A stretch of 63,845 nucleotides of DNA, filler included, from Reclinomonas americana ATCC 50394 (GCA_048213135.1; 8 parts of 6 records of this genome joined end to end with filler, not necessarily neighbours in it); one strand, 5' to 3'; counted from the first letter of the whole stretch, positions 1 to 58,081 are shown. Made by a program: numbers and translations. The notes: a model not told the origin generated them from the sequence alone.

Positions 1-2107
1 GTGTGTGCATGGAGTGAGCAATTCACAAACGACATTGGCTGCAGACACAATACTATACACGTAACCATACAGAGTAAAGTTGGCCTCGGTGTAGAGGTCG
101 GACGACACAGACGCGCGTACACGAATGTACATGACAAATGGCAGCGGAGCGTCGAGGTTGGGCATGGAAGCCACCGCAATGACGCCAGTGGCTGGGTCGG
201 CAATCTTGAAGTAGCTGTTGTGGGTATCGAGAGTGCCTGCTTGCAAAGTGTACGAGACAGCGCGGCCGAGATTCAAGCGTGTGCTCGACAGCGTGCCCAC
301 AGAAGCATCGGTGGCGGCCGGCAGGAGAATCACCGGACTCGGTGGAGTCAGTTTTACCTCCAGCGGGGGATACAGCACTGTGCCGCAAGCAGTGAGTAAC
401 AGACTCCACAGAATTGGTGTCGAAGGCGAGCAAAGTGACGCACCCTCATCCACAGTGAACTGCGTCGACAGAGTGAGTTGCGGACGACCGGCGTCGACCA
501 CCTGGATTGTAAGTGTGACGGGCCCCACTGGCGGCGCCGAGCCAATCACCAGCTGCGAGGCGCCATTGATGCTGAACGCGTTTGGCAGACTCTGCGCCGT
601 GATGCTAAACGTGTAGGCGGCCGTGGTGTCGTCGGTGACGCGAATGGAGGCGACCACTGTGTTGGCCACACTCTGCGGCGGATACTGCAGCGTGCTCAGG
701 TCGATGCGGGTCGGGGCATTGTCGACTGCGTGAGTGTACGCACACAAATCGTGAGTTGTGAGACGCAGACGGTCGGCAAGTCGACGGTCACGCAACTGGC
801 AAACACAAATGTGCGATCGACAAACTGTTGAAAATAAAAAAAAAGGCGGCGAGGAGAGTGTGAGGGGACTGGGAAGTTTGAGAGTGACAGGGAGTTGAGC
901 GGAAGGGAGGGATTACCAGTCCAGCAGAATCCGTCACACGCGCACGCACGCTGAACTCGGAAAAGTAGGTGCCAACAGGAATGTCGGCGGCACCGACCTG
1001 GAGCTGGTTGCCGACAATGGCAAACAAGGCGGTGTGCGCAGCGTCCGTCATGCCCATGGTCACCAGCGAGAAAGTGAGGGTGTCAGTGGGGTTTGGATCG
1101 GTGGCGGCAAACGTGCCCACGGCGGTGTTTGCCAGAAGACCGCCTGTGCGAATGAGCAGCGGCGTCGCAGCAGGCGAAAAAGTGAACGTGTCCGGCGCCA
1201 TCTGCTTCTCCGACAGCACAATCGACGAGGTGGTTGAGGCACCGGCCGCATCGGTCACAGTGATCTGCAACGACTTGACGCCCTGGAGACTCATGGCGTT
1301 CACACGCAGCTCATTCCCGTTGGCCACCGTGAACGAGTCATTGTCGACAACCATCGGCGCCAGCGAAAACGAAAAGCGATCGTTGGGATCCGTGTCCACA
1401 GCGCGCAGACTGCCGACCAAATCACCGACCGCGGAATTCGGCACGTACGTGGCGGTCGACAAGACCACCCCGGTTGGTGCCTGATTCAGCACCACCTCGT
1501 ACCGCTCCTCCGTGAACTCGGCCAGCGTGTTGGTCACACGGACACGAAAGCGCAATGGAGACGGCGTGCCCGCCACCAAGTCCACAGCCAGCTGGTAAAA
1601 AGCACACGCATGAGATTGGCACGACAAAGAAGAGGAAGAGGACGCCATGGATGCATACCGTGACCGTGGCCACACCGAAAGCATCGGTCGCGGCGGTGAT
1701 TGTCAGCTTGGCATTGTCGGTGCTGCCGAGGCCGGCGACCAGAGTCAATGTCAGCGCAGTGGGTGGATCCACTGGATCCGTGGGTGCCAGCGATGCCACG
1801 ATCACTGGCTGCTCGACAATCATCAGAATCGGAGAAATGACAGTCAGACGACGATCACAACACAACGCAACTGTGGTCATAATGTCCGTCGGCAGTGAGA
1901 TCACGCCGGCGGTGAAGACCGATGCGTTAGGCGCTACACGCACACACGCAGTGAGCATCGAAATCCCCCATTCCTATTGCGTGACGATCAGACGCAACGA
2001 GCCGCCGCGACGCTCAGTGTGGTGAGCAGCAGCAGGAGCAAGCTTATTGCTGCTGTTGTTACTGTTGTTGTTGTGATCATTGATCTCCTCCTCGCTGGAA
2101 ACGACAT
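1..2107 (-). CDS. Secreted/surface protein with tandem cadherin-like repeats; multi-exon, runs off the window start
   Basis: Signal-like hydrophobic N-terminus (AAISLLLLLLTTLSVAAA). Exons join in phase at donors 1998, 1871, ~1657, ~915 and 796. Repeats carry cadherin hallmarks: NQAPT/DNAPT linkers, VGxLxAxDxDxxDxFxFxL, and F-x-I/V-x-G-N-x-L. Confidence 0.75.
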
Positions 2108-2749
2108 GCGTCGTCGCAGTGCGTTTGATGACATGCTCATTTTTGTCAGCGACTCCCCGTCCGATGCTCTCCCTCTCTGATTGTGAGATTGCTCGTCGTC
2201 GTCGTCGTTGTGTCTGAGGGACGCGCTGATCTCTCCTTCTCGCTCACTCTCTGTGACACACACACGCAACACAAAAACTGTGGCCACTAAAGAAAGGAAA
2301 GAGGGCGGAGAGCGAGTGTTGCTCGTCGCGAAAATGTATTGGTACGGGTATTCGGACACATTGCTCAGCGGGACTCGGGACGATGAGGATTTTTGTGGGC
2401 GAGAGGGAGCGAGGCAGCGGCTGGCAGTCAGAGGGGGATGCGACGAGGAATGGGAAGTGATGAGCGGGGTGGAGAAGTGCATCGGCGCACTGTCGGCCAT
2501 TCCACTGCAAGAAAAATGACAGATTTCGTTGGTTGCACCCCGCAGAGTGCTCCATAGATCTCCTCAGCGCAGCCACGGTGTAACGCAGAATGTGGTCAGT
2601 GATACGCTCAATCGCGACACCTGTGCGGGGACTTGCCACGTGCACGCGACGTCGACTTCGAGAATATTCACAACACACGAAGGAAGTGAGTGGTTTTGCA
2701 ATCGCACGCAGGTGATCGTGGACGTGAATCGCCCTCCCCACACTACCGC

Positions 2750-5295: not shown

Positions 5296-6658
5296 TCACC
5301 GCATCTCGTGGTGAAGGCGGCGGAAGAATACCAAATCCATCAGTGCCAGCACCGAGGTGTCGTGCGCGTCGCGCACAGAAATACCCGGCTGCGGCGACGC
5401 ACCCAACGGCGGCAGCAGCATCTGCGACTGTGGAAGTTGACGCACGTGCTGTGACTGTGCTTGCTGTTGCTGTTGTTGTTGCAGTAGCAGTAGTTGCTGC
5501 TGCTGTTGTTGTTGTTGTTGTAGTTGTAGTTGCTGACTCGCCAAGCGTGTGGCCACCGGAGAAGAGAGCAGCAGCGTTGAATCCGCGGCTGTCGCCGACG
5601 GCATCGGTAGTGAGGCGAGCATCGGCGGCATCGACGGTCTGGTGGTGACCGATGAAACAGCCGGTACTACGACACGTTGCATCGTAGGTGACAAGCCAGT
5701 GGGTACGGTGGTCGTGGTGCTGGTGCTGCTGGCCATCATCATAGCCGGAGTCAGCATCGAAGCGCCGCCGCTGCGACTTATGAATGCCGACGACGGCGAC
5801 CGTGACGAGGAGCTGACCAGGCTGGCACGCCGCGCCTGTGATGGTGAGTCCTCGCCCTCGGGCCTGTCATCGTCGGACGCAGAGTCCGACGGTCCATACG
5901 GGTGATGCCGATCCGACGCAGCAACACCCGGCGACCGACGTCGACCGCCCATCACCGCCGCAGAATACGCCCGCCGTCCTCGCTTGCCTTTTGGCGGCGA
6001 GTCCTGGCCATAAGTCTGCGATAGCAACAACAGCGCAATCAGTTGTCCGACCACAATGCAGTGATGATGCTGGCTGGTTTCACACATACCGGTGAGTCGG
6101 GAGCGTCATCGACACCCGAGCCTGGTGTCTTGGCTTTCCGTCGTCGGTTCTCGAACCACACCCTGCGACGCCGCAATACTATACTGTGAGGCTCGCAGAA
6201 ACAACTGCAACGTAAACAAAGTGCACACGCAACGTTACACTCGTCAGAGTGCGTCCGAATGCCGCGGCAATCTCCTCCTTCTCGTGCCTTGTGGGGAACG
6301 AGTTGGTCTTGTACATGGTCTCCAGAATGTGCAGCTAGCAGCAGCAGCAGGGCCATCAGACACAATGGCTAACACGCGCAGTCTCAAAAAAATGAATTCT
6401 TGCACAAACCTGCTCTGGCGTGTACTTTTTGTACGAGCGCGACTTGTGCTGCTGCGAGCGCGCCTGTATGCTCTGCACAAGCGACGCCGCAGTGGCAGAC
6501 AGAGCCGCTGCCGTGGACAACGTGGACGATGATGAGGGTGAGGAAGGCATGGTACCAATCGCGACGGGAGGCGCCACAATGCGCATCAAGGACGGCGGCT
6601 GTTGGTGAACAGGAAAATCGGTGTTGCGATTGCCACTTGGCTGCTGGTCCATCAGCAT
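5296..6658 (-). CDS. Homeodomain transcription factor with S/Q-rich regions; exons 6658-6410, 6334-6234, 6162-~6089, 6015-5296
   Basis: Spliced homeodomain reads KSRSYKKYTPEQLHILETMYKTNSFPTRHEKEEIAAAFGRTLTSVTVWFENRRRKAKTPG, with the WFxNRR helix 3. A polyQ tract lies downstream. Confidence 0.85.
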
Positions 6659-11130: not shown

Positions 11131-13512
11131 AGCGGACGTTCGGGCGAAGGAGACTGCTGTGACTGGAGCGAAGTCAGAGAGAGTGAGAAAGAGATCGCAG
11201 CACAAGAGGCGACATTTAGAAAGCAAAACACCGAGGGCGGAGAGAGAGAGAGCATGCACCTCGCAATGTACGAGCGATGTCACGACAATGGCATACGAGA
11301 ACAGTGGAGTAGTACCGCAGCAGTTCAAGAACAAGCAGCAAAGATGAGACGTGGGTACAGAAGTGATGCGACGAAGGGAGAGCATAGAAGTGCACGTACA
11401 GAAGCACTTGAGATGGTAAGGCAGGATCTTGAAGGCACAACGGTGCAAACCAAGACAGCACAGCCTCGAGCACAGCAACAGAAGACAACACACGATGGTA
11501 ACAATCAACGATGCACTCTATTTTGCAAGAGATCACAAATCACACAGACAGAAAATGCTCAAGAGCACGGGAATCAATGACAAGAGTAGTGCAGTTGACC
11601 ATCGCAAAGCAGTGAAACGAGAACACGCCATCAAACTACTGCGCAGCAGCGGCGATCACGTGAACGACAGTGGGACAGCACGAGCTGCGAGCGAGATGAG
11701 GCAACACACAAAGAGACACGAGAGAACAAAGACTCACGACTGATCCACATGAAACAAGAATGCAAGCACACAGACAATACGACAGGAGAGAGCAAGAGGT
11801 CTGCGACAACCATCGGCGCAGATGACAAGAGATCGAAACGAAGCAAGAGCACAGGCACGAAAACCAGACGATACGAGCGAGAAGGTGACTCGTGACTGCA
11901 GACAGTCGAGCATCGGCACGAATACGCATGAAACGCAGGCACACGAGACAGCAGATAGTTGGTGACAGGCAGCGAGCGAGCATACTCTCGAGCAACGAGC
12001 GAAGCGAGAAGACGACACGAGAGAGCAGATGGACGGTGACAGCACAAGCAACGAATGCACAGCGATGAGGAAACAGACTGTTGTTGAGAGCACGTGGTAT
12101 AGCGAGTGATGAGAGAGGCAAGAGAACAGCGACATGACGGACAGCGAGTCACACAGATAACCAGGAACGATCAAAGAACGCAACCACGAAGCATACAAGA
12201 TAACACGAGGGAGTAGGTCGGTATTGAGAACAGCGATCGGGAAGCATGAGCAAGAAAAGCAAAGGGAAAGAGAAACTGACTGCTGTTGAGAGAAAGTCGT
12301 GCAAATAACGACAGACGAAAAGAAGAAGCAAGCAAACAGCAACGCGGCAGAGCATATCGTTGGTGACGGACAGTGAGTCACACACGATCAAAGAACGCAA
12401 TCACGAAGCCACACACGAATACAGAAGAGACCAGCTAGCTGCAGAGAACAGCGATCGTGAAGCTACACAGCGATGAGGAAGCAGACACTTGATGTGAGCA
12501 GATCGTGTCAATTCCAAGTGACGAAGTGAAGCCAGCGAACAGCAACACGAGAGAGCGCATTGTCGGTGAAGGGAGCAAAAGTAACGAATGCACAGCAATA
12601 GAAAAGACGCTATTGATGAGAGAGCACAAGAGTCGAGCACATCGTTGGGGATTACAAAGAAGCAGCGAACACACTGACACACACATCTATACATGGGCGA
12701 TCGAGCATTCTCCACGCTGCTACGCACGCTGCGCCTGTCGACTCACTCTTTCTCTCTCTCTAATCATCCTGTTCTCTGCCTTCTCAATCTCCTTCTCCTT
12801 CTCCTTGCTGCCGACAACGAAACTTGCGACGAATGGCACGAGTGCGCTTCACACGGAGATCCAACGGCAGCTGGCTCTTGCCGGCAAACGCCTTGCGTGT
12901 GTTGCTGCGGCGCTTGGCATTCAACACCGTCAACACGCGAGCAATGTTCTTGCGCACAGACGAGCTGCGATGCACAAACACACAAAGTCAACAACACTGT
13001 TCCATCGCCCGTCCTCCTCCTCCTTCTCCTCCTGCTGCTTCTGCTGGCACGCAACATCTTGCCGAGCTTGGAGGCACCACCGCTGGTCACTTGCGCGACG
13101 CGCAGTTGTGCGAGCTCCTGCTTGAGCTCGGAAAGCTGGCGCTGCAGCTCCTCAGGTGACTTCTCGCGGAGCGAGTACGCAGAGATCTTGGCTGTGTGGG
13201 CGTGCGCGCGTGTGTGTGTGTGAGTGACATGACATGTGCGCGCGAGTCATGGCCAACAACAACAACAACTACTATCGCAGCAGAAGCAGAAGCACACAAA
13301 AAGACGAGTCCTCTCTTTGCTCTCTCACCGAGTGCACGCGATGCGCGGGATCACAACACACTCGTACGTGAGCGTGCGTGTGTGTGGGCGCACATGCATG
13401 CACATCAGACGCACTCTCTCTCTCTCAGCCTGCCCCGCCCCAATCCGTCTCTGTTTTTTTCGTTCACGCGCAGCACGATGCTCCCTGTCCCTGTGTACCC
13501 TACGCAACTCAT
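9092..13512 (-). CDS. RPL35: 60S ribosomal protein L35 (uL29); 4 exons, last intron ~3.6 kb
   Basis: Spliced product: [62 protein letters not shown]...[48 protein letters not shown]. Donors at 13508, 13055 and 12823. Confidence 0.93.
11300..12720. repeat. Degenerate purine-rich tandem repeats inside the last RPL35 intron
   Basis: Recurring blocks such as cacagcgatgaggaa, gacggacag(c/t)gagtcacaca, gatcaaagaacgcaa(c/t)cacgaagc and gagaacagcgatcg. A (GA)n tract lies at ~11058-11123. Confidence 0.7.
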
Positions 13513-13829: not shown

Positions 13830-13929
13830 NNNNNNNNNNNNNNNNNNNNNNNNNNNNNNNNNNNNNNNNNNNNTTAATTAATTAANNNNNNNNNNNNNNN
13901 NNNNNNNNNNNNNNNNNNNNNNNNNNNNN
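13830..13929. other. Assembly spacer N-TTAATTAATTAA-N; also at 22168, 27981, 41440, 45440, 52295 and 58126
   Basis: Identical 12-mer with stops in all six frames, centred in ~100-nt N blocks. Genes are truncated at these points. Confidence 0.95.
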
Positions 13930-15034
13930 CGAACTGGAAGAGCAGGCGGTCAGGGCCTCAAACAGCGGTGCCAGTGCACCATAGTGCAGCGCACAGCGCT
14001 CCAAGCACAGCGACCGCAGCGACCGGTTCTTCTTCACCATGTCGCCGAGCGCCGCACCGCCCTCCATCATAATGTAATTGACTAGGGGCAACAAAGAGTG
14101 AGGGAGCAAACACACTGGAAACGACCACACCGCCACGGAGCGCAACTCATGACAGTGAGCTCCTCCAGTGACGAATTCTCGCTAATGGCGCGGAACAGGT
14201 GGTTGGCCAGCGTCTGTGAGAGCAGGTTTTGCTCCAAGCGCAGCGAGCGCAGTCGACACGTGGGCGCACGCAGCAGCGTGGCCAGCGCCACCGCTCCATC
14301 CTCCTCCAGTTGTACCCAGTTGAGGAAAGCCAAGTCGCGCAACGCACTACGCGGATCTGAGCAGCAGCAGCAGCAGCAGCAACACAGAGTGAGAGATGAG
14401 AAACAAGGACAAGGACAAGGAGGAAGAGGGGGAAGACGCAACTGGCCGACACAGCCTCCAACATCAATCGCACACTCGGACCGCGCACCGCCCCACTAAA
14501 CGACCCATCGTTGCGCATGCTGACACTCTCCAAGTAGCGCGACACGGGGCTGTCGACCGACAGCGCCTCGGCCAGCAGCGCAGCCGGTCGCGGCCCCGTC
14601 GCTCCCCCAGGCTGCGTGGCCACTCGTCTCAATCGCGGAAACGTGGCCAGTGCCTTCTCCAACGCCACCTCATTCTGCGGACTGACCGCCACCATGTGCT
14701 CCCTAAAGATACTCATCCACTGCCAACACACCTGCGAACACACACACACACACGACTATCATCAGTCGTTCATGTTCGATGCTATTATCGCCTCTCTGTC
14801 ACACACACACACATGATTTACACAATCGCTCACTATCTTCCGTCGACAAACCGTCGCACATGATCCATAGTCTTTGGCATTGAGAAACGAAAGCACATGT
14901 CCCCAAAGAGCTGCGTCAGGCAGCAAATCCTCTCGCACAATCACTGACACCAATCGCTCCTCTTCCTCCTCCTCCGTCCTTTCTTCCACATTGCCTGCTT
15001 CGCTCTCACGAGAACGCGGTGCTGCAGAGGCCAT
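13930..15034 (-). CDS. F-box plus leucine-rich-repeat (RNI-like) protein, 3' truncated at a contig join
   Basis: F-box-like LPDAALWGHVLSFLNAKDYGSCATVCWQW, then LRRs (LRSLRLEQNLLS, NSSLEELTVMINYI, NRSLRSLCLERCAL). Donors at 14442 and 14146 restore the frame. Confidence 0.8.
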
Positions 15035-18149: not shown

Positions 18150-18597
18150 TGCCAGAGCTGAGGCGTGTGAAGAGAGAGAGCAAGACGATTAAAATATTGG
18201 AATCGTGTACAAAAACAAAAAAGATGCGTTCGAACGCCGTCAGTCATCCACAAGAAGCTGGGCGTTTGTCAATGGCCACTGTGTTTCCATGCAGTGTGAC
18301 GCCGTGCCACCATGCCTCCCCCCAAATCACGGAAAAGGTTCTATGAGAAAGATGCTGCAAAGATCCGAGTACCGATTCACAAATTATTCGCGAATGATTC
18401 AGGTCAGGTGCGACCGGGTGCGGGCGGGTTGGCATCTTTTTTATACTTCTCTTCTTACACGCCCGCTGAGCGAAAGCAACCTCCTCCCTCCTCTCTTCAA
18501 CAACCCCTTCCACACAGTTGAGTCTCTCGATCTGTCTTGTCACCCTCCTGCGATCCTGTCACTCACCTTTTCTCTCTCTCCCCTGCAGAAAACACAA

Positions 18598-18879: not shown

Positions 18880-19149
18880 GCGTGCTCACATCGCCGCGCG
18901 CAGCGCCGTGGTTGTTGTTGTTGTTGTCGTGTGCAATCCAACAGGTTGCGTTCACGATGCAGCTGCAGCTGCAGCCGCGGCGCGTGCGCGCAGCGTAGCG
19001 ATGAAAAGCAAGTAAGATAATGAATGTTTTGTTGTATAGTGCCATCGCGATCGTCCCTGCCACATGTACACGTGCACATCATCACCACGAGAGAGAGAAC
19101 TGACGATCGCGACAAATCACCCTCCGCCGCTGCGGCGATTGCACGCTGC

Positions 19150-19875: not shown

Positions 19876-20487
19876 TTTCTGCAAGGAGGGAGAAGGTGAG
19901 TGACAGGTTCAAGCAAGAAGGACAAGGCAAATCGAGAGACTCAACTGTGATTGTGTGTGTTGGGAGGGCTTTGTGAAGAGGGAGCAGGTTGCTTTCGCTC
20001 AGCGGCGTGTGGGAAGAGAGGATAAAAAAGATCCAGCACCTGACCGAGCTCGAGCTCGAGGTGCGACGATTGAATCTGGCCGGATCTTTCGTTGCAAGAA
20101 AGATGCGAACGATGATTTGAATTCATGAATGCTGAGCGATCAATTGCTTCTCATAATTCACTTTGCGCGGCGACGATTGGTGGTGGCACGTGGGACCGCT
20201 GATTGACGCCCGTTGGCCACCAAGGGCTGACGCAGGCATGCGGATCGGACGCTGGCAAAGATCCGGCCAAAAATGAGATTCATCATCGCACCTGTGTCAG
20301 GTGCGGGCCGGGTGCGGACTGGTGCTGGATCTTTTTATCCTTCTCTTTCTCACACGCCGCTGAGCGAAAGCAACCTGCTCCCTCTTCTCTTCACAAACCC
20401 CACCCAACACAACAATCACAGTTGAGTCCTGTCACAGGCCATGACCACACACCTTCCTGTCACTCACCTTCTCCCTCCTTGCAGAAA

Positions 20488-38420: not shown

Positions 38421-38949
38421 AAGAGCAAGCCAATGTGGAGCATTCGCGTGCTTGCCAGCGTCGAACTGGTAGTGACAAGCGGCTTATGCCCGTCGGTGCT
38501 GCCACAGTCTGCTGTTTTGCAACTGCCAGCTGCAGAACCTGCGTCAGGTTCTCGGCATCTCGACGCCACAGCGGACTCTGTTGTCGTGCCATACCCGAAC
38601 TACGCCGCTGTGTGACACAGATCGGCAGTCCTCCACTTATCTGACTTCCGAGAGAGAGTGTGCTCATCGATCAGCGTTCGCAACTAAGGGGTTTCTCGTT
38701 CACTATGATACACTCTGAAAGTGTGTGCACGCGCACAATCTGCGCCGACAAGAGCGTTACGTGTGCTGTTGAGCCACGGCACAGACTTGGAGATACACGC
38801 ATACCATCTCACTGCAAGATAGAGTCGAAGTCGAGGAAATCGTCGCATGACCAACTAAAGTCTTCCACCTCGAAGTTATTCTGTGCAGTAGACAGGGGGA
38901 ACAATTAGAAAACTGAGCATCGACAGCACATGTACATGAAACACAGGTC

Positions 38950-40742
38950 GTGCTCACCTGCCAGTCAAGACTCGCAAACGCCAGCTCACACTGCAGGGCG
39001 AGAGGCAACGAATCAGAGATACCTGTGGAGCACGTGGAGGGTGGCGTGCACAGAGCAGAACAGGAAGAAAAAAAGTGAATTGAAAGACGGTGTCGTTACC
39101 GGTGCAGCAGCGCTTGACTCGCAACACTCGGATTCCATCTCCTGCACGGGCGTCGTTGCGACGGGCAGATCGCATGCAGACTCTTCGTAGAGCATTATCG
39201 GTGTCCAGTGATCACTCGCCAATGTGTCCTTCTCCGTATCCACCGCCTGCACGCACCGGCGAGTGAGAAGTTTAGTCGAACACCGAGTGGGGGCAATGAT
39301 ACAGGAACGCACCATGTGACGGCTCTCCTCATCGGCATCGTCCTGAGCAACAGCACTGCTCTTTTCTTCAGCGTCGTAGTATGGAGCAGCAGCGCTTGGG
39401 CGTGCGTACGACGGCTGAGTACCAATCTGTGTGCCAAGACTTTGTGAGAAGGGGCGCATGGTTGGTGCTCCACAAAGGAAGGAAAGTGACTCACGCGGTG
39501 CCACACGCCGGGCAACGGCGTCAGCGTCGCGGTCGACGAGGCCCACGGTGCCACAGCAACTGAATGGTGCTGCGTCGAAAAGCAAGGTCAGCCAAAGCAG
39601 CCAAAGCAGCACAACACGCATGACTCTAACCAGTGGAGAGGCAGCGGGCAGCATGTGCATGGGGAACGACACTGGAGTGCCGCACGACCAAGCGCCGCTC
39701 GAGGGGACCAGCGGCGGCGGCGGCGACGGCGGTGGTGGCTGAGGCACCGACATAGGACCATCGATGCGCGGTTGCACAACGAGTGGTGGTGCCGCAGCCG
39801 ACACGAGAACAGGAGCACTGCCAACAAATGCACACACAAACGCTTTTTCACCACAGCAAATGCGCTGCAAATGAAGCCGGTTCGGTGTGGTTGACAACAA
39901 CGTGCAGCGCCCCTCCCTCATGCCGACCGCCAGCAGCCGTCACTCGTCGAACCAACATCACATCGACGCCATCGTCAGCAACGCAGCCGCCAACATCGTC
40001 GCCGTCACCCCCAGCCGGTTTCTTAAGCAGCTCAGTCAGGCGCGGCAGCGGTCCATCGTCACGCAGGAAGAACAGCCGGTTGCGCAAGTCATGCCTCTCC
40101 ACAAAGACCTTCCACGTAGCCCTTCGCTGGCTTGCAAACAAGCCGGTGCCACCATGCTGCGAAGAAGGATACTGTGAGAGGTGGGCGGGGGAAGGGAAAC
40201 GGAGGGGGGATAANNNNNNNNNNNNNNNNNNNNGGAGGACGAGGAGGAGGAGGAGGACGAGAGGAGGAGGAGGAGGAGGAGGAGGAGGAGGAGGAGGAGG
40301 AGGAGAAGAAGGAGGAGGAGGAGGGGGTAAGGTAAGGAGAAGAGGAAAAAGAAGCAACAAGCAAGAAGAAGAAAGAATATTACGACGATGATGGATGCAA
40401 CGAGGAGAAGAACAAGGCAAGAAAAAAGAGGAAGAAGAAAGAAGAGAATACGGAAATCTGATTCTCTCATGATCACTCTCTCACTCTCTCTCTCTCACAC
40501 ACACACACAACTTGCCCCCACCGACATACCATGCTGTTGAGCAAGCGCGCCAGATACGACCGACATTCCTTACGTTGCAGCTTGCGACCGGCGTGCGGAG
40601 CGCCCCGATAGACGACGCTTCCCGCGCATTGCAGGTCGCTCACAGTCGGATTCACAGGCCACACCACACGGAGAAGCTGGCGAATCGCTTCCTCCAACCA
40701 GTGCTCGACAACGTCGGCGGGCATACAATTGTGGAATGACAT
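38950..40742 (-). CDS. Unknown protein family X, copy A (conserved N-terminal domain plus low-complexity tail); 3' end approximate
   Basis: MSFHNCMPADVVEHWLEEAIRQLLRVVWPVNPTV...GRKLQRKECRSYLARLLNSM|HGGTGLF...HDLRNRLFFLRDDGPLPRLTELL. Intron positions are shared with copy B. Confidence 0.6.
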
Positions 40743-44496: not shown

Positions 44497-44497
44497 T

Positions 44498-45395: not shown

Positions 45396-45502
45396 NNNNN
45401 NNNNNNNNNNNNNNNNNNNNNNNNNNNNNNNNNNNNNNNTTAATTAATTAANNNNNNNNNNNNNNNNNNNNNNNNNNNNNNNNNNNNNNNNNNNNCTTCT
45501 TC

Positions 45503-45649: not shown

Positions 45650-48600
45650 ATCGAACGTGGTGCAAATCGAGCACGTGATCGGCGAGAAGCAGCGCCGTCT
45701 CGAGCGCGTGGTGCAGGCCGACGAGGAGGCGAAGCAGTCGCTGCAGGAGCACGTGGAGCTGCAGGGGAACCTCGAGGAGGAGGCGACGCGCGTGGACGAG
45801 ATTATGGCCAAGACCGAAGCTCGCCTGACGCAAGTGGAGCGCGAGTTGCAGGATCTCAAGGACACGCAGTACAAGCGCTCGACTGCGCTGTTTGCGTTGA
45901 GGCGTGAGGAGGTGAGGGGTACTTCTGATCTCTCCCTCGTTGTGGTCACATTGCGCGCTCTACTTGCGCTTGTCTTTCTTGCTCTCTCTCTCTCTCTCTC
46001 TATTTCTCTCATTTCCTCTTTCGCTCATACTGCGCTTTCATCCGTGCACGCCTCTCACTCTCTCTCTCTATCTCTCTCCCTCCCTTTCATTCCTTCCCCC
46101 TTTCCCTCTCTGTCCCTCTCTGTCCCTCTAACTTTGTCTTCGAGCTGTCCTTGAGGCTGTGCTTGCTGAACATTCAATTCTGCTCTGCTCATCTCTCTTT
46201 CTCCCTCCCTCTCCTTCTCCTCTCGCTAACCGCTCCCTTCCTCCATTCCTTTCTGCTTCCCACGTCTCATTTAATATCCTTTCCCGCTTCCACATCTCTC
46301 GGTATCTTCACCTGCGCCTAATTCTGCGCTCGCTCTTCTCGTCTCTCTCTCTTTCTCTCTCCCTCCCTCTCTCTCTCTCTTTCTCCATTTCCTTCCTTCC
46401 CCCTTGCTTATCTGTCTCACTCTTTATCTTCACACCGTGCCCAAAGCTGTGCTTGCTCAACTTTCAATTCTGCTCTGCTCATCACTCTTCCCCCTCTCCT
46501 CTCCCCTCTTCCCACACTCATTTTCCTTCTATTTCTCTCTCTTTCTGCGCTCGGTCTTCTCTCTTTCTCTTTGCCTCTTCTCTCCCCCTCGCTCTCTCAT
46601 TTCCACCTTCCTTTCTGCCTCCCACATCTCACTTACTTTCCGTCCCCCTTCCCGTTTCTCTCTCCCTCCCCCTCCCTTCTCCCTTCTCCCTTATTCCCCC
46701 TCTCTCCCCCTCCCCCTCCCCCTTCCCCTTTCCCCCCTCTCTTCCCCCTTATTCCCCTTTCCCTTCCCTCACCCCCCTTCCCCTTCTCCTTCCTCCACAG
46801 GCCAACTTGATCGCGGAGATCGCCGGCTGCCGCTCGCAGAACAAGAACATGATGGCCAAGCTGCAGCAGCTGGACGCCGAGTCCTTCAAGCAGCAGGAGC
46901 TGCTGTACAACATTGAGTTCCAGATCCAGCAGCAGGAGCGCCGCGTGAACCGCGCCGAGGGCGACCGCAGCGAGGAGGAAAAGGCGATTTTGAATGAGAA
47001 GATCGAGCAGCTGCAGGTGGCGCTGGAGGAGGTCACCGGGCGCTGCAAGATGCTGAACGGGCAAGTCACTCGCGTGCTGAGCGAGGTGCGCAAGGCCAAG
47101 GTCGCCGCCGCGGAGAAGCAGTTTGCCAAGCAAAAGGTGTCGGAGAAGATCATGGAGCTGCGATTGGAGAATGACACGTTGCGTTGTCAAAGAGGGGAAA
47201 GCTTGCTTTTCCCTCCTATCTTGTCGATGCTCATCGCCGTTCCGCAGTTGCGCGCAAGAGCTGCGAGAGCTGGCCAAGCAGCGCGAGGACATGATGGTCG
47301 ATCACGACGTGCTCAAGCTGCAAGTCAAGCGGCTGCGTGACATTCTCAATGCGCGCAGCGACGAGGTGTTTGGACTGGAGAACCGCAAGGGTCAGCTGGA
47401 GATCACGCTGCAGGAGCGTGAGACCGAGATCCGCGTGTACAGGTCTCGTGCTTGACTGGATGCCCTCTTCTCCCTCCAATCACGCCTGCTCACTTTTTTG
47501 CATCCCCACAGAGATACACTGTCGTCGGAGCTGCGCATGATGGACGAGGAGCGCAGCAAGTTGGTGCGCGAGCTAAAGGAGCGCGAGGCGCAAGTCGACC
47601 GACTGCGCAACCGGTACGAGATTCTCATGACACGACTCCGCGTCAACGATCCAGACGGCGACGCAGACGGCGAGGCTCTGCAAGCCAAGTTTATCATCAA
47701 GGCGGCGCAGGAGCGCGAGGCTCTGATGCGCACCGGTGATGAGCTGGATGCGCGCATTCAGAAGCTACTCAAGGAGGAGAAGTCGATGCGCAAGTCGCTC
47801 AACTTGCTGCGCGCCAAGAATGTGGGGTGCGTTGTTGTTTTGTGGTGGGGGGAGGGCTGATGTCACCGGTGGATGAACTCACCTGTTTCTTGCAGATTCC
47901 AGCAGAGTTTCCACAAGGCCGACGGCAGCAGTGCCGAGGCGCAGAAGAAGACCGATCTTGATGAGGTGGGTGGTCGTCGTGATCGGAGGTGAATGACTCG
48001 TGTGTGTCTCACCCACTGGTGTGTGGCACACAGAAATTGCACAAGGCGCGTGCGTCGCTGCAAAAGATGCGCACTGAAATGCTGGAAATCGAGGACATTA
48101 ACGAAAAACTACGGGTGCGTGATGGTGGTAGTGATGGCGATGCATTGTTGTGAGGCTGACATTCATGTGTGATGCAGAACGACTTGGAGGCCATTGAAGC
48201 GCAAGAAAAGGGCGACGTCGCGCACGAGATTGCCGAGTCGCAAGAGCAGAAGCAAGCACTGCAGTCGGAGACCAAGACGCACGCGGAGCGTCTGGGCACC
48301 TACATGCGCAAGAAGCAACGGTGAGAAAGAGCCTGCGCACCCTCCCCCTTTTCGCCCATCATTTACTCATACCACGTGCGAACGCCACAGAGCTCTGCGA
48401 TCACTGAAGGAGAAGCACGGTGTACCTGACGAGGAACTGCATCCGATTGAGAAGGACCTCATGATTGCCGAGATGCGCGACCGAAATCGCGAGGCTCTGA
48501 ACCTGCTGCTGCAACTGGGCAAGATCAATCCGGCGCTGCGCGATCCCTTGGAGGAGATGACGCAGCGATTCGGTCTGCAACGCACCCGGTCGAGCTCTGG

Positions 48601-48795: not shown

Positions 48796-51700
48796 CTATA
48801 TCGGATTCATTCCTCCCTGTTGCTCCTCCTCTCCATCCTCGTCCTCGTCGTCGTCATCGTTGTCACCTCCATGGTTCGCATCCCGGCGGCTACCACGCGT
48901 TGGCTGCAATCCCATAGCATCCATGGCCGCCTGTCCACCACCATACAACGCCCGTTCTGCCAGGTAATACTTGACGAGATCGTGCCGGCGATGCGGCGCA
49001 CTGTCGGTGCGAACCGCCTCGGCCAACAGACGCAAATGCACCCGCCGTGCGGTGCTCGTCATTGTCTCCAGCACGTGGTGCATCAGGTTGAGGGTGCGCG
49101 GCAGCAGCGTCCAGTGACACACCATCATCACCGACATCACAATGGGGAACGCATACTGCGCCGACTCGGACGAGATGCCGACAAACGCATGCACCGCGTC
49201 AAAGCAGTACGTTGACTGCGTGGGAGAACAGACAGTGAGCGTCGTCGTACATACAAGAGCACTCTCTCTCTCTCTCTTTCTCTCTCTGCGGCTCACCCAC
49301 GGACTTGTCGCATCAAAGGTCTGCAGAATGAGCGCAATATTATCCTGCGCGCGTTCCGCCACCCGTCCAGACACGTTCTGCGATGCATTCTTTCGATGTG
49401 AGCATGGTGCGCGAAGGCACTCTGAAGAGCTTCACCGGAAATAATCGCAACTCGGAACACTCGCTCGAGATAATGTGGCACGATTAGCACACAGCAAGGG
49501 TGGCGCTTTGCGAGCAGCTCCAAGAACAGCGCTCGGGCGGCGGTGCGCAACTCCGGAATGCGACTCTCCAACAGGCGAAAGAACCAGTCGCCGAGAACCA
49601 AGTTCACGTGCTCCTCAGTGACAGCCGTGCTCAGGTGGTGTTTGACCACTCGACCGTAGAACGCCAAGCGCGACGCTATCACACGACCTGCACTGCATGT
49701 GAGTGGCACAATTCAAGCCTCGCGTCAATGGCAAACACCACACCTTGCTCGGGTACTTCCAACTCGCGCAGTGTCTCCGTGACGACGTGTCGCACAGTGG
49801 CGTCGGAAAGTGCTTGAATGATGCGCACCACTGTTCCAAGTCCCTCCATCACCGCGGCGAACTCGGTGTACGAGAGAGCGCGCAACACCGCCAGCTCCTG
49901 CGTCATATCTGCAAGGCCATGAAACAACGGCACCACATACGCTCGTGTCACGTTTTTTCTCACCTTCATGAACGAGACCGTGGAGAGCGCTGAGTAGCAC
50001 ACTGGTAAACATGTACCAGGAGTGGAAGAACCTGCGTAATGGGGTCACGTTGGCGAGTCCGTCTGCCGCACACGACGAGCATCTGAGTCAGCAAGCCACC
50101 TAGCGTTGACAAGATACCATCGTACGTACCTCGCTTCAGGTTCTCGTCCACATGCGCTGCCCACGCCTTAAAGTATCGCTCACAGGCCGTCTCCACCGTC
50201 TGCAGCACTGCTGTTGGCGACGGGTGCACTGTCAACAGGTGCGCCAGGGCCGCGGCCGATCGTTGCACTGTGGCAAAGATGGCCGACCGCACATGCGTCG
50301 CCAATGTCTACAGATACAGACAGCACACATACACATGTTGGAAAACAATGGAAGAGAACCAGCAGCAGCAGCAAACCACGACTTACGTGGTTGACGATCG
50401 ACGGCGCCAAGCCCGGCACTCCATCGCTCCTCAGCAGTGAGTCGTACAGGAACAGGACGCGCAGTGCCGCACCAAGAAGGGCATCGCAAACAGGCTGCGC
50501 GAAGAAACAGTTCAATGCACAGAAAAGAGTGCTGACAAACAACCAACCTCATGACGCACCGACAGCCACGAAGCAGGCACATTTCGAGAGCACCACACAA
50601 TCGCAAATAGCGCCGTCAGTTCTGCTTGTGAGTCGCCTGTGCATGCGTCGTGTTAGTGTGCACGTGCACTTCTTTCACTTCTGTTGCATAGCAGGACGCA
50701 ACTTGGATCCACCACACGCGACCACTCGTTGCAAATCTCTCGACATACAGTGGCCGCCAGTGTCCGATCAGGCTCCTCTCCCGCGCCAAACAGCTTGACA
50801 AACGCAGCACAACCAACAAGACTCATCAGGCGCGTCACTGTGGCACCACCAATGAGATGACAAACTCAAGCACCACCGCGTCCCCTCCACTCACAAACCT
50901 TGCTTGCCACCCGGGTCCGTCCACTGCGCCATGCACACCTCCACCACACGTCGCACGTACGCGTCGTGTCGCTCGCTGGTACCCGCGGCAGCCACCGCCG
51001 CGGCCGATCGATTCTCTCGTAGCCGCAACAGAGTGAACAGTGAAGTGAAGAAGCGTGCGGCTTGCAGCGCACGCAGTGCACTTGGCGATGCACTGGACGC
51101 GACAGCAGAAGCGGAAGCCTTGGCTGGCGGCTTCACCAGCGCGCCGATGCTCGTCAACACGAGAGACACCAACTCGCACACCGATGTCATCTCCAGCACA
51201 CTGGCAAATGAGGCCAGGCAGCGGAACACCTGCCCGTGTGCTCCACTGCGCAAGAAAGATGTGAGTGACGCAAGAGGAGACATTGTTCCACAATTCCCTC
51301 TCTCTCATCTCACACACCGCGACAAAAGCATCCCGTTAGAGAGCAAATTGCGTGCCATCATCAACACCAGTTCCCGTTCCTTGCTATCCTTCACAAATGC
51401 TACGCACACAGAAGGAAGTGTGAACACACAGAGAAAGCGATGACCCATTCAAACGAGAGCACCTCCAATGGCAAACAGCAGTGCGAGAAAGGCCGAGAAT
51501 AATGCCGGCGACGTCATGTGGCGGGTGAGTAGTTGCCGGCACACGCGTGCACACACGACGCCGTACTCGTGCTCGTCGTCGGTCACACTCACACCTTTCG
51601 AGCCGCGTTCCTCTGCAACAACAACAGCGAGCCGGATGAGGAAGCGTTCGTGCACGACCCCTCTCTCTTCCCGTCGTCCGCTCACCAACAATCTCCGACG

Positions 51701-52250: not shown

Positions 52251-52663
52251 NNNNNNNNNNNNNNNNNNNNNNNNNNNNNNNNNNNNNNNNNNNNTTAATT
52301 AATTAANNNNNNNNNNNNNNNNNNNNNNNNNNNNNNNNNNNNNNNNNNNNGAAGGGGAAGGGGAAGGGGAAGGCAAGGAGAAAGTAAATCAAAGGGGAGT
52401 GAGAAGGGAGGAGAGCGGAGGAACGCAGGAGAAGAGAGTGGAGGAAGACAGAATAAGAGGAGACGAGAAAGAGAAACTGATCTGAGTAGAGTCGCATGCA
52501 GAGAAGTAATCAAAGGAGAAGTAAGAAGAGAAAGAGAATGGAAGAAGACAAATAAAAGGAGAGGAGAAGGAGAAAAGAGAACGGGGAGGAAGCTTCCTGC
52601 CGACAAAAGAGGAGAGAAGAGAGGACGAGGAGAACAACTGCTTACACCAGACAAGTGACAAAC

Positions 52664-54691
52664 CTCGGGCGACAATTGCGCCAGCCTCTCCTTCTCGGCC
52701 GCCTGAGCCTCATCCTCCTCGTCCTCCGGCACAACGGCCTCCGGGTGCAGCACCTCTGTCGCACGAATGTGAGGGCACACACACATACATATACACACTG
52801 CGATCTTGCGTTGTCGCAACTGTAGATGTAGTTTCGCACGCGCGGCTTCTTGGCCACAACCAGCAGCTCAGCGCCGTACCGATCCCGGCACCGCGGATCG
52901 GCGCCAGCAGCAATCATCAGCTTGACGCACTGCATCACAATCGATGAGTATCCAACGGAAACGAAAACAAAAACAGAGAATATGCGCGACAGTCACGCAC
53001 CTCCAAGTGACCCGCCTGCACCGCATCAAAGATGGGCGACTGCGACAACACCTCCTCTTCGGTTTCTACGTTGGTGGGAATCACGGGGGCCGCCAGACTC
53101 GCACCCGCCTCCAGCAAGCAGCGAATGGTGTCGGCGTGACCGTGGAAGGCGGCCTCGTGCGTCGGTGTGCGACCGTACTTGTCGACCGCGTTGGCCTCCT
53201 TGGACGCGTCGGTGCAGCGCGCCAGGTAGTACGTGCAAAAGTCCGTGTGTCCGCGACTGCGATTTGGTTAGAGTGCGTGAGTGACACGAATGAGCGCGCC
53301 CGCCCAAGGTGTACAGCGAGGAGAACCTGGCGGCCTTGTGCAGTGGCGTTCGACCATAATCGTCGGGCTCGGTGAACGCCATGTCGGGAATGGCGCCGAG
53401 TACGCGTTCGGCAATCACCACGTGCCCGCCCTCCGCCACTGCGTGCATGATGTTCTGCGAGAGAGGCAAAGGGATGTGAGGGATGTCACAAGGAACAGGG
53501 AGTGGGGGACGACCGAAGGAGAAGGAGTGGAGCGATTGAAGGAGACACAGAAAGGGTAATAGAAGGTCGGAAGTGAGTGGAGCGGGTGGTGAGACAAGTG
53601 AAAGGGAGCGGAAGAGAGAGCAAGAGACGGCTGGAAGTGCAAGAATCGGAGCTCTACCTTTTGCGTCGGCGACGGCAGACCAATCTTCGCACCACGCTCC
53701 ACCAGCCGATCAAACAACGCCAAGTTCTGCACGCACACAAGCCGTCAGGATACGACGACAGCACACCACCGTCTCCAACCAATCAACGCAACTGCATTGC
53801 GCGCCGCGTAGTGCAGCGGTCGCAGTCCAAAGTCATCGCGCAAGTTCGGCTTGGCGCCCGCCTCCAACAAGCGCATGGCGATCTCCGTCAGGTTCTGATG
53901 CGCCGCTTCGACGAGTGCCGTGCGTCCCTCCGCCGGGAAGTGTGTGTTGATTGAAGCGCGCTGACGAGGCAGTGAGTGAGGAGAAGGAGAGAGAAGGGAA
54001 AGAAGAGAGGAACAAAGACGAAGACGGAAAAGAAGGGAAGAGGGGGGAAGAAGATAGAAGAGAGAAGAAGAACAGAGGAGAAGTGAGAAGAAGAACAGAA
54101 GAGACGAGAGAAGCAAGCGAGGGAAAAGGAGAAGAAAAGGAAGTAGAGAAGAGAGAGAGAAAAAGGAGAGAGAAAGAGAACAGAATAGAGAAGAGAGTGG
54201 GAGAGAGAGAAGAGAGTAGGAGAGAGAGAGAAGAAAGGAAGAGAGAGAAGGGAAGAAGATAGAAGAGAGAAGAAGAAGAACAGAGGAGAAGAGAGAAGAA
54301 GAACAGAAGAGAAGAGAGGGAAGAAGAGAAGACAGGAGCCAACGCGGAAACGAAGAGAAGAAAAAGGAGGAGGAGAGGAGAGAAGAGATTGAAGAAGAGA
54401 AGGAGTGAGAAGTAAGGAAGAGCGAGAAAAAGGAGAGAGAAAGAGAAACAGAATAGAGAAGAGAGTGGGAGAGAGAAGGAGAGAGAAGAGAGAAGAGTGG
54501 AGAAGGGAGGAAAGCAGTGAGATAGGAAGAGTGCGAGTTGAGGACTTCGCCATTACCTTCTTCACATCCGCAAGGAAGCGCTCCACAGCACCCAAATCAC
54601 CACTCGCCACCGCATCAAACAAATCCGGATCCTCTGCGACAACAACAAAAAAACAACAAAAATCGTCGGAAAAAATAACAATCAATGCACA

Positions 54692-55255: not shown

Positions 55256-55885
55256 ATGTCATCCCAGGTGCGGCGTGTTGTGTCCTTGGCGACGAGCCAG
55301 CGTGTGCCGTTTGCCGCCATGCGCGCGTTTGGCACGCAGGTTTGTGTGTGTTTGTGTATGCGCGCGTGCATGACGTGCCATCTCTCACACGCGCACAACA
55401 CGCGCAGCCGGCTGCTGGTCACCAGACGGGCAAGTTTGCGGAGAAGGAGCGTGCGGTGGAGAACCAAGTTGCGAGTGGGTATCTTCTGCACACACAATTG
55501 TGCGTGCTCTGATTCGCTCTCTCTCTTGTGTCTCTCGCAGTACTTCAAGGAGCTGGAGGAGGCGCTGGTGAAGCGGCTGTCGGAGCATCCCGAGTTTGTT
55601 GCGTGACTCTTCAGTGTGTTGCACAATGAGTGTGTGTGTGAGAGAGAGAGATTGATTTCCTCTATGTGTGCAGATCAAGAAGACGGCGGCGGCGGGTGCT
55701 GAGAAGGCGCCGGCTGCGGCTCCTCAGGGAACCATCAGCAAGTCTGAGTTCGAGGGTGTGTATCTCTTACTTCATATCTTCTTTTCCCATGCATGCTCAC
55801 TTGTTGCTTGCTTGTGCTTGCAGCGTACAAGAAGGAGATGGAGCGCAAGCTGAAGCAGCTCGAGTCGCAAATCAAGGAGGACTAA
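55256..55885 (+). CDS. Mitochondrial F1Fo ATPase inhibitor IF1-like protein; 5 exons
   Basis: Transit-like N-terminus, spliced GKFAEKERAVENQYFKELEEALVKRL (IF1 inhibitory segment F.++E.A.E..Y), and a coiled-coil tail. Confidence 0.8.
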
Positions 55886-56004
55886 GTGTGTGTGTGTGGG
55901 CTGGTGTATGTGTGAGCTCTGTCTTGTCGCTGTGTCGCCGTTTGATGCGGCGTGGAAGAGTGAGAGAGAGAATGTAAGAGATTGACAGAGTTGCACGTCG
56001 TTTT

Positions 56005-56461: not shown

Positions 56462-56943
56462 GTGTGGCGGTCTTCTCTCTCTCTCTCAAGTCTTGCTGCA
56501 AATCGAAATCTGACGACTGTGCCGGGAATCGATCGCGACTGGCGGATGCACCGAGACGCCACTGGCGAAGGAAGCTTCTGTCTGGCAATTGTCTGTGGAA
56601 GGTGGAAAACAAACAGAAAACTTCATTCACCACAATGCAAGAATGCGACCAACGTCCACCAATTCCTTGCCGACAATGACCTTGGCACACCAACAATATA
56701 AATACACATACTTACTCTTCTCCAACAGTCATCTTCTCTGCAGGAGGCAATGCCAATCAAACGCGTTGGCCTCGAGAAAGGATTTCGTCCCACTTGCCAG
56801 CTGCTCGTGGCGTTTTTTTCGGAACTGAAGCAGCCCGTTGCCAGTAGTGCACCTTGTGCAACCTCCGCAGCGCGTCTTGTGCACGGAAAAAGGAGAGCCC
56901 CGAAGTCTTCCGTCGCAAGTCCCAGCGCGCTTGGACAAATCGC

Positions 56944-58081
56944 ATGTTGACTTTCGCCGCGTTATCGCGAGGGCTCGTCTGCTCTCGTCGTCTATTCTCC
57001 ACCACAACAGCAGCAACAGCAGCAACAGCAAAACTCAAGAAAAAAGCAGATCCAATGCCACCAAAGGGAAAGAAGGGCGCAGCGGAGGAGCCCAAGGCGG
57101 TGCTGGGCCGTCTTTCGCACTCACTCAGTGCTGGTGTTGCGTCTTTCTCTTTCCCTCTGTGCCTCTCTCTTGCTCTTGGTGTGGCTGCTCACACTCGTCT
57201 CTGTTGCATAGATTGTCGGCATGCCCAATGCAGGTTTGTGTGTGCGTGACACATGCCACATGTGCACACACGCACAACTCCCCTGTGTCTCTCTCTCTGT
57301 GCTCTCTCGCTCATGTTACTCTCGCCTTGCGCGTTGTGTATGCACGACAATCGCACGACATGCAACGCTTTCTCCTTTGGTTCTTGTGTGTGACATGGGC
57401 ATGCCTGCAAGAGACAACTCACTTTCTCTTTCTCTTTGTGCAGGCAAGTCGACTTTCTTCAACATTCTGACGGGAAGCTCGGTGAGTGTGTCTCTCCTCA
57501 GCCACTCTGTGTTCTCAGTCACTCACTCTCATGCGCAGGTGCCTGCCGAGTTGAGTGCTCGCCCACTTCTCTCTGTGCATCCTCTGCCAGTCACGCATCA
57601 CTCACCTTCTCTTGTCTGGCGATATCATGAAGGGCGTACGCATTCTGCACAGTTGCGTTTCACTCTCTACATCTGCACACGTACACAACACAACCAGGAG
57701 CCGCACACTTTTGATGATGAGAAACTTTAAAGCATGTTGGAAGCTTACGAGCTTGTGACGAATCAATACTTAATCCTTTCTGACATACTCTGTGCACTCT
57801 GCCTCCTCGCACTCCTCTTCTCGTGTAGTTTGGTGATGTGGCGTCCATCTGATTCTTGTGTTTATGCGGGTCGCAGATTGATCCGAGCAATGCTCGTGTC
57901 GCGGTGCCGGATGAGCGCTTTGACTGGCTGGTGGATCACCACAAGCCAGCGAGCGTGGTGCCTGCCTACCTGAACGTATGGGTGCGTGCGTGTGTGTGGG
58001 ATTTCTTGCGAGAGGGAAGCCATTCCTGCCATGTGCTGATTTGCGTGTGGGCACAGGATATTGCTGGTCTCGTCAAGGGCG
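56944..58081 (+). CDS. OLA1: Obg-like ATPase 1 (YchF family), 3' truncated; includes two micro-exons and a 37-aa N-terminal extension
   Basis: MPPKGKK...[43 protein letters not shown] and DIAGLVKG. Confidence 0.93.

Follow-up and report, generated by a model that had tools for sequence, protein, structure and literature searches.

The 63,845-base stretch of DNA analysed here (hereafter the window, approximately 55% G+C) comes from a fragmented eukaryotic draft, and its genes carry predicted introns with two kinds of 5' splice site: an ordinary donor of the form G|GTGNGT and a second donor, GTTGCG or GTTGAG (GTTG[CA]G), which is the subject of this work and is referred to below as the GTTG class. 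The window consists of eight concatenated stretches, with extra gaps of N within the stretches, separated by seven identical linkers made up of 44 N, TTAATTAATTAA and a further 44 N, each containing a six-frame stop (13830-13929, 22124-22223, 27937-28036, 41396-41495, 45396-45495, 52251-52350, and 58082-58181). The linkers join eight separate scaffolds, and genes such as OLA1 are therefore cut off at a scaffold end (58081). Among 67 long open frames, Pfam named a DEAD-box helicase, three NDUFA4/B12D copies, a DUF4464 protein, WD40 and WDR41-like proteins, a class-III aminotransferase, CCDC39, and an ankyrin protein. The closest homolog of CCDC39 is a transcript-like protein (P0121, 73% identical), and the best named relatives of its exon are from Naegleria lovaniensis (58%), a Euglena gracilis transcript (55%), and Acrasis kona (52%), which hints at a position within Discoba; the OLA1 homologs were without lineage signal. 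The source organism's own proteins were not found in the protein collection, where the best identities were 79% and 73%, and a metagenome scan with the CCDC39 exon gave no match. No small nuclear RNA (snRNA), transfer RNA, or other Rfam family was detected in the window with Rfam, at gathering thresholds and at E <= 1, or with ARAGORN.

An earlier note on this DNA had listed 22 places, 19 of them in coding sequence, where an intron would begin with this motif. The motif was present as described at 21 of the 22; the site at 19945 proved to lie on the minus strand and not on the plus strand (atcaca|GTTGAGTCT). At the 19 coding sites the last exon base is A in 11, T in 5, C in 3, and G in none, exactly as had been reported. 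Across the window, GTTGCGT occurs 25 times versus 12.4 +/- 2.9 in dinucleotide shuffles, and GTTGCG 66 times versus 51.7 +/- 6.2, with 0 of 100 shuffles reaching the observed count in either case. This raw enrichment is modest, and it is the gene context of the motif that provides strong evidence.

This context was examined with our own dynamic-programming gene finder, which combined codon log-odds with an acceptor matrix, allowed introns of 40-700 nucleotides (nt), and used 'GT' as its only donor term. After four rounds of self-training, the donor-agnostic finder returned 104 introns, in which GTTGCG was the commonest donor hexamer, with 10 occurrences where its proportion among all 7,795 GT sites predicts 0.88 (P = 2.4e-8), followed by GTGCGT (n = 6). 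An unsupervised two-component mixture, started at random, separated the donors into aaG|GTGcGT (0.76) and tga|GTTGCGT (0.24). The final pass, based on this mixture, predicted 123 introns, 18 of them with GTTG[CA]G. Of the 22 listed donors it recovered 13, and it added five GTTGCG donors that had not been listed, at 28465 (weak), 37296, 38684, 39125, and 49451. The proposed share of roughly a fifth was borne out, as the class makes up 15-20% of the predicted introns, depending on which of four filters is applied, and 23-26% once introns lacking a recognisable donor are set aside. Having emerged unsought from both the donor-agnostic finder and the mixture, the second donor class is real, discrete, and frequent, as had been claimed. 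The finder is noisy: no recognisable donor was present in 43 of its 123 introns, many of which are probably wrong, the acceptors at 6233 and 57550 were misplaced, and the IF1 gene was missed.

Seven donors of the class were fixed to the residue by homology (57136, 57550, 57652, 13508, 13055, 47178, and 6233). For OLA1, a profile was built from 90 of the 120 returned homologs, those of 380-412 residues, and every in-frame, stop-free boundary pair within +/-10 nt was scored at each of six introns. Three of these introns belong to the class, all on the plus strand: intron 1 (57136..57211; tggt|GTTGCGTCTT ... gcatag, 76 nt), intron 4 (57550..57632; ccga|GTTGAGTGCT ... atgaag, 83 nt), and intron 5 (57652..57876; caca|GTTGCGTTTC ... 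gtcgcag, 225 nt). In each of them no other GT-AG pair within +/-10 nt keeps the frame; the claimed pair scores 166.8 bits, the highest profile score at 57136 and 57652, while at 57550 the best score for any boundary is 167.0. Splicing intron 5 as claimed yields the conserved ...CT|IDP... junction.

The same junctions bear on the proposal that the cut falls one base later at both ends (HG|UUGCGU ... AGN|), so that an invariant G at the exon end would form the canonical pair with U1 and the intron would begin UU. Such a cut would explain the invariant G before TTGCG as well as the base preceding that G, which resembles position -2 of an ordinary donor, and it costs little: 165.6 and 165.7 versus 166.8 bits at two OLA1 junctions (1.1-1.2 bits), with equal scores at one OLA1 junction and at the CCDC39 junction. 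However, it requires non-GT, non-AG borders (UU...AGN) at every such intron, whereas all 22 curated class introns begin with GT and terminate in AG. In addition, the GT-AG cut produces Ile at both OLA1 junctions that are informative (GIVG, CTIDP), as in 12 of the 12 homolog rows displayed, and the later cut produces Val. A displaced cut is accordingly considered very improbable.

In RPL35/uL29, on the minus strand, one class intron directly follows the start codon (13192..13508; ATGA|GTTGCGTAGG ... cacag, 317 nt), where it was also called in the mixture pass, and a second lies further downstream (12965..13055; agat|GTTGCGTGCC ... tcgcag, 91 nt). Residues 1-44 of exon 2 align to residues 3-46 of 123-residue uL29 chains, and residues 3-47 of exon 3 to residues 50-94. 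This leaves the Met and one split codon before exon 2, and one split codon between exons 2 and 3, which fixes the donors as ATGA|GTTGCGT at 13508 and AT|GTTGCGT at 13055. Towards the 3' end of the same gene (12790-12865, minus strand), the frame enters a short odd tail after the conserved ...TRAIRRK and then meets a stop, and the +1 frame offers a plausible lysine- and glutamate-rich C-terminus; this may reflect an assembly indel or an unrecognised feature. The 58-nt intron placed here by the gene finder (12865-12808) was rejected, as it would remove conserved residues. The CCDC39 intron (47178..47247, plus strand; acac|GTTGCGTTGT ... ccgcag, 70 nt) scores 1501 against P0121 versus 1486 for the next in-frame GT-AG pair, and its junction is gap-free. 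The intron of the homeobox gene (6163..6233, minus strand; taac|GTTGCGTGTG ... gtcgcag|G, 71 nt) lies between helix 2 and helix 3. Against the Pfam Homeodomain profile, residues 1-26 of the upstream exon match positions 12-37 and are followed by seven more residues, and the V of VWFENRR corresponds to position 46, leaving one split codon for position 45.

Beyond these seven, three further donors are supported, one by a better match when spliced and two by stop codons. The intron at 1809..1871 (minus strand; caca|GTTGCGTTG) of a repeat protein is stop-free, in frame, and 60 or 63 nt long, its acceptor being GAG at 1812 or GCAG at 1809 as judged from the sequence context. It was not called by the gene finder; the spliced product scores 587 versus 508 bits unspliced against the best repeat-protein homolog (P0133), and the sum over the top 20 is 7483 versus 7356. 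The two introns of an IF1-like gene, both on the plus strand, are forced by stops: reading through 55468..55540 (ccaa|GTTGCGAGTG ... tcgcag, 73 nt), whose acceptor is preceded by 17 pyrimidines in 20 positions, meets an in-frame stop after 14 codons, and reading through 55598..55673 (gttt|GTTGCGTGAC ... gtgcag, 76 nt) meets one after 2 codons. On the minus strand, a cadherin-like repeat gene contains an intron at 726..796 (gcca|GTTGCGTGAC ... acgcag, 71 nt), called in both the donor-agnostic and the mixture passes, with an adjoining exon that matches tandem-repeat proteins. A claimed intron at 1934..1998 (minus strand; gctc|GTTGCGTCT ... gtgtag, 65 nt) was not called by the finder and is suggested by the reading frame, in which read-through hits a stop after 3 codons and a 170-codon frame resumes past the acceptor. 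The cadherin-like exon at 917-1591 (minus strand) matches tandem-repeat proteins of very great length (as many as 5,688 residues, with up to 26 matched stretches) at approximately 30-37% identity, and Pfam found no domain in the submitted open frames of the gene (1-912 and 1425-1973, minus strand).

The class is defined most sharply on the exon side of the donor. As the earlier note had maintained, G is absent from position -1: it is present in 0 of 21 class members versus 43 of 62 ordinary donors (P = 5e-9), and, for the homology-checked donors of OLA1, RPL35, CCDC39, and the homeobox gene, in 0 of 7 versus 7 of 7 (P = 5.8e-4). The class bases at this position are A in 10, T in 9, and C in 2, and A occurs there in only 1 of 62 ordinary donors (P = 1.4e-6). 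On the intron side, all 21 members have G at +4 and +6 by the definition of the class, 17 have C at +5, and 14 have T at +7. The description of the motif as the ordinary donor displaced by one base is correct insofar as the core is shifted; however, the GCG core is far more fixed than its ordinary counterpart, with C at +5 in 17 of 21 versus C at +4 in 17 of 62 (P = 2e-5). The extra base is restricted to T, since the donor-agnostic pass called 6 of 25 GTTGCGT sites as donors, but 0 of 28 GTGGCGT, 0 of 13 GTCGCGT, and 0 of 1 GTAGCGT sites.

These patterns also bear on the possibility of an artefact, in which errors of hand tracing, assembly indels turning GTGCGT into GTTGCGT, or chance matches would have created the class. 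The fragmented draft with its linkers, the possible frame problem at the 3' end of RPL35, and a raw motif enrichment that is only about twofold agree with such an explanation. However, the class was recovered independently of the earlier note, seven of its donors are placed to the residue by homology, and control heptamers with another extra base were never called as donors. A T inserted into ordinary donors would leave approximately 69% G at -1, and not 0 of 21; such insertion is thus not the origin of the class. Assembly error was rejected in view of the -1 base and the control heptamers, and an artefact of any of these kinds has very little probability in our judgement.

Downstream of the donor, the introns of the class resemble ordinary ones. 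A branch-like CTCAY motif occurs at a distance of 8-42 nt from the 3' end in both classes: it was counted in 14 of the 22 introns of the GTTG class, where it lies within 8-34 nt, and in 16 of 26 ordinary introns, versus approximately 2-3 by shuffling; over both classes the motif, often CTCAC, is found in 30 of 48 curated introns versus approximately 5 by shuffling (for example at 57190-57200 and 18560-18575). The class introns end in GCAG in 12 of 22 cases and in ACAG in 5 of 22, the same ends being found in ordinary introns, and the median length is 76.5 nt versus 71.5 nt. Overall, they display the features of U2-type introns, with GT-AG borders whose removal restores the frame and a branch-like motif and pyrimidine-rich tract before YAG. 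As branch motif, 3' end, and length are common to both classes, the difference lies in the donor alone.

The intron bodies are unrelated, as the earlier note had observed: mean best local scores are 8.1 within the class, 7.7 between ordinary introns, and 7.9 between the two. This result bears on introners, that is, a family of mobile intron-generating elements carrying the GTTGCGT donor. A shared 5' heptamer and mostly short, similar lengths (65-91 nt in 15 of 22) would suit such a family; nevertheless, two bodies from within the class resemble each other no more than bodies drawn from different classes, and the only related ones are those of the three NDUFA4 copies, which are gene duplicates. 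The similarity among bodies that introner copies would display was not found, and this origin is hardly credible. Pairing of the donor with a complementary stretch close by, forming a hairpin, was also considered; it was seen by eye in 3 of 22 introns versus approximately 1 expected by a rough estimate, and was dropped.

A genome with two discrete donor consensus classes recalls U12-type introns and the nonconventional introns of euglenids. U12-type introns have the donor /RTATCCTT, a branch site near the 3' end, and no pyrimidine tract. This identity was rejected, as all class donors are GTTG[CA]G and the introns resemble ordinary ones in their 3' parts. The nonconventional code of euglenids, described as 5'-N3-CDG ... 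CHG-N5-6 with no fixed GT-AG (PMC12501133, in the part of the article available), was likewise discarded, since positions +4 to +6 of the class are GCG or GAG and not CDG, and the borders are GT-AG. On the evidence of the DNA alone, it is demonstrated that the class exists, that it is frequent, that it appears to be cut as GT...AG where homology can tell, and that it differs from ordinary introns only at the donor.

Further predicted members are spread over other genes of the window. A leucine-rich-repeat gene on the minus strand has two introns supported by the donor-agnostic pass and the reading frame, at 14082..14146 (atga|GTTGCGCTCC ... ccctag, 65 nt) and 14357..14442 (gcca|GTTGCGTCTT ... 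gctcag, 86 nt). Three NDUFA4/B12D paralogs, two on the plus strand and one on the minus strand, lie within 2.7 kb at 18190-20830, each with an intron in the 5' untranslated region (5'UTR) that ends just before the ATG. In copy A, which carries a B12D domain according to Pfam, this intron spans 18517..18588 (plus strand; caca|GTTGAGTCTC ... cctgcag|AAA..ATG); the corresponding intron spans 19879..19945 (minus strand) in copy B, with an acceptor taken from the mixture-pass prediction ending at 19879, and 20421..20484 (plus strand) in copy C, where it was placed by paralog comparison. The earlier note had considered these introns probable members of the class, and their donor, branch region, and acceptor are indeed kept in the three paralogs while the interior has diverged, the pattern of conservation that is expected of a real intron; the three sites are paralogous copies of one intron. 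Directly downstream of the stop codon of copy A, on the sense strand, a further site at 18945 (plus strand; caacag|GTTGCGTTC) is one of the few GTTGCGT sites that follow G, and could be a 3'UTR donor or a chance occurrence.

The WDR41-like gene contributes two plus-strand introns. The one at 31955..32019 (atgt|GTTGCGTCCA ... ttcgcag, 65 nt) was called in the donor-agnostic pass and follows an exon whose WD40 repeat ends 3 residues before the donor. The claimed one at 31714..31786 (ctct|GTTGCGTTCT ... atcgcag, 73 nt) is indicated by frame only; the gene finder instead chose a GTGAGT donor at 31583, 131 nt upstream, with the same acceptor. A homolog search with a WDR41-like exon gave no match, and Pfam found nothing in the exon upstream of 31714. 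Four of the introns absent from the original list lie on the minus strand: 37167..37296 (gcgt|GTTGCGTTGC) and 38608..38684 (ctta|GTTGCGAACG) were predicted in the mixture pass only, and 39023..39125 (gagt|GTTGCGAGTC) and 49216..49451 (ccga|GTTGCGATTA) in both the donor-agnostic and the mixture passes. The remaining members are also on the minus strand. The intron at 50622..50702 (ccaa|GTTGCGTCCT ... aagcag, 81 nt) is supported by the mixture pass and the frame, and the ankyrin gene has two introns called in the donor-agnostic pass, at 52756..52820 (taca|GTTGCGACAA ... cgacag, 65 nt) and 53727..53792 (tgca|GTTGCGTTGA ... gtgcag, 66 nt), the latter preceded by an exon that matches ankyrin repeats.

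Other unusual donors were noted in the window. G|GTTTGT recurs at 55340, 57234, 6409, 36648, 50898, and 52663, and five GTTTGT donors were predicted, four of them after G. As GTTTGT keeps G and T at +5 and +6, these donors belong to the ordinary class, and the ordinary register also accepts T at +3. The homology-checked CCDC39 donor at 47443 (acag|GTCTCGTG) has no G at +5, but +6 and +7 are G and T; this could be a further donor with a displaced core, here with G at -1. In the last stretch (58182-63845), a gene of unknown family is present in three tandem copies, with near-identical open-frame stretches starting near 58229, 59765, and 62365 and with recurring GTACTT and GTTGTG donor predictions.

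The way in which these donors could be recognised was considered in terms of pairing with U1 snRNA. We propose, giving it an even chance, that they belong to introns of the major spliceosome whose donor is read by the same U1 in a register shifted by one nucleotide. The introns would be ordinary U2-type GT-AG introns, and the U1-pairing core UGCGU would occupy +2 to +6 at G|GUGCGU donors and +3 to +7 at H|GUUGCGU donors, the same U1 pairing one nucleotide out of its usual register. The first intron G would then stand in for the last exon G of ordinary donors, the U at +2 would face a mismatch, and +3U to +7U would build the usual helix, while later steps (U6, U5, Prp8) would still place cleavage before GU. 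For a single U1 acting in two registers, a 5' end such as ...ACGCACCUG or ...ACUCACCUG would fit.

The features known from shifted-register sites of the type described by Roca and Krainer are present in the class, namely a non-G, often A, at -1, a U at +3, and the equivalents of +5G and +6U at +6 and +7. For the -1 base of the class, the likelihood under the ordinary -2 distribution exceeds that under the ordinary -1 distribution by 28.9 nats, and the restriction of the extra base to U is what pairing with a U1 adenosine in the shifted register would need. Duplexes of 23 class donors were calculated with nearest-neighbour models for three assumed U1 5' ends, none of them from this organism. 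With the human 5' end, mean energies are -1.9 kcal/mol for the class and -6.7 kcal/mol for ordinary donors, and +1G falls on the shifted base in 7 of 23 duplexes and on the canonical base in 1 of 23. With a kinetoplastid-type 5' end, the means are -3.65 and -7.75 kcal/mol, with 9 of 23 shifted and 0 of 23 canonical, and with a U1 fitted on ordinary donors only, they are -7.3 to -7.7 and -9.8 to -9.9 kcal/mol, with 15 of 23 shifted and 0-1 canonical.

The same data bear on a different use of the same U1, in which the register stays canonical and the U at +2 or +3 is bulged out (bulge +2/+3). The downstream pairs would be the same as in shifted pairing, the run of two U permits a degenerate bulge and agrees with T alone being tolerated as the extra base, and this register has been validated in human cells, with 54 curated sites (Tan et al. 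2016, PMC4856993, in the part of the article available). However, a bulged canonical helix should keep or strengthen G at -1, and the exon-side pairing with a favoured -1 G was not found, given its absence from the class and its prevalence in ordinary donors (0/21 versus 43/62, and 0/7 versus 7/7 where homology was checked). Moreover, none of the three U1 models places +1G on its canonical partner in more than 1 of 23 donors. The preference for shifted pairing over a bulge, already expressed in the earlier note, is thus favoured by the exon-side statistics and the duplex models, although indirectly, and we assign the bulge a rather low probability.

Several observations nevertheless weigh against a shifted register of the same U1. 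The class pairs poorly with human- or kinetoplastid-type U1 5' ends, for which the best duplex is neither shifted nor canonical in 6 to 15 of 23 donors, and the fitted, GC-rich U1 binds random GT sites at -6.9 kcal/mol, so that its energies discriminate weakly. On the exon side, G is wholly absent from -1 although 16% would be expected from the ordinary -2 distribution (P = 0.025), and T at -1 is as common as A, which the shift alone does not explain. The ordinary donors used for comparison come from our own noisy gene finder, and the cleavage point is deduced from frame, homology, and the GT-AG rule. Finally, the core is fixed on GCG beyond what is seen in ordinary donors, a feature that a dedicated U1 variant would explain equally well.

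Such a variant, or another RNA that binds 5' splice sites, would be fully complementary to GUUGCGU, and the window would then reflect two specificities and not two registers. The nearly invariant core, more fixed than the ordinary one (P = 2e-5), and the poor pairing of the class with standard U1 5' ends agree with this explanation, and U1 5' ends vary within Euglenozoa: the diplonemid S. specki has two U1 genes with differing 5' ends (PMC12621601, in the part of the article available). On the other hand, a second U1 alone does not predict an A/T-rich, G-free -1 position, and a single U1 with G/C at two central positions would, in the model, also give a fixed core, because the weaker register would need every remaining pair. 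The extra fixation of GCG may thus result either from this need or from a second U1 with a matching 5' end. A second U1 is unlikely in our estimate, but still a candidate. Shifted pairing is the best-supported reading, and we infer both this register and the use of one U1 for the two classes; the underlying observation is confirmed and, as judged from sequence, statistically robust within one 64-kb window.

Comparison with known systems indicates what is unusual here. In human, validated noncanonical U1 registers account for 1.5% of 201,541 5' splice sites according to the available part of Tan et al. (2016, PMC4856993). The shifted-register sites of Roca and Krainer (2009, Nat Struct Mol Biol 16:176), as described in that part of the same article, share with the class a GU intron with the U1-pairing positions one base 3', a non-G exon end (the earlier note quoted ACA/GUUAAGU), and cleavage at GU. 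Unlike those sites, which are rare among approximately 200,000, the present donors form a sharp second consensus that comprises approximately 15-25% of the window introns; they also have a GC-rich GCG core and not AAG, and their register is suggested here by sequence and duplex models. With the human bulge +2/+3 registers (Roca et al. 2012, as treated in the same part of PMC4856993), they share an extra nucleotide between GU and the equivalents of +5G and +6U in GUU-type donors, but differ in an exon side that argues against a bulged canonical register and in a frequency at least ten times higher. Since shifted and bulged U1 registers are already known as rare human sites, a frequent second consensus class appears to be what is new here.

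Among possible relatives, the conventional GT-AG introns of Euglena gracilis, with the consensus GTGTG (Gao et al. 2024, PMC11170887), resemble those of the window in their GTG-type donor, CAG acceptor, pyrimidine tract, and short length; however, the available main text of that article, in which 'gtt' occurs 0 times, mentions no GTT-type second class. From the parts of the articles available, diplonemid donors are (G)/GTATG or G/GT (PMC12621601), and the kinetoplastid U1 5' end begins AACUCACCUGCA (PMC11613528). Full-text searches by motif and by concept gave no description of a GTTGCGT or GTTGCG donor class among the matches listed, those for the motif being primers or sequences without relevance, supplementary donor tables lying outside their coverage.

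Whether the pattern extends beyond the window is a broader question. It is possible, at slightly less than an even chance in our estimate, that the lineage runs two fixed 5' splice-site codes genome-wide, G|GUGNGU and H|GUUGCGU, with the helix of U1, or of a second U1, displaced by one nucleotide at the latter. Gene finders that rely on a single donor matrix will miss or misplace approximately one intron in five here, leading to frameshifted models, and even the finder with a learned mixture called just 13 of the 22 listed donors. If the two codes are confirmed, a U1 register no longer tied to the cut site, which is an oddity in human, would be a routine and selected part of the splicing code for approximately one intron in five. 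In hundreds to thousands of introns the U1 helix would be offset from the cut, beside ordinary introns in the same genes, offering a natural test bed at genome scale for how the cleavage site is fixed after U1 departure. The class raises the question whether a second register was permitted by changes in U1, in U6, or in proteins such as U1C and Prp8, and also the question when it arose, as the plain insertion of T into ordinary donors does not give the exon-side pattern; the two-code system may be shared by an entire branch within Discoba.

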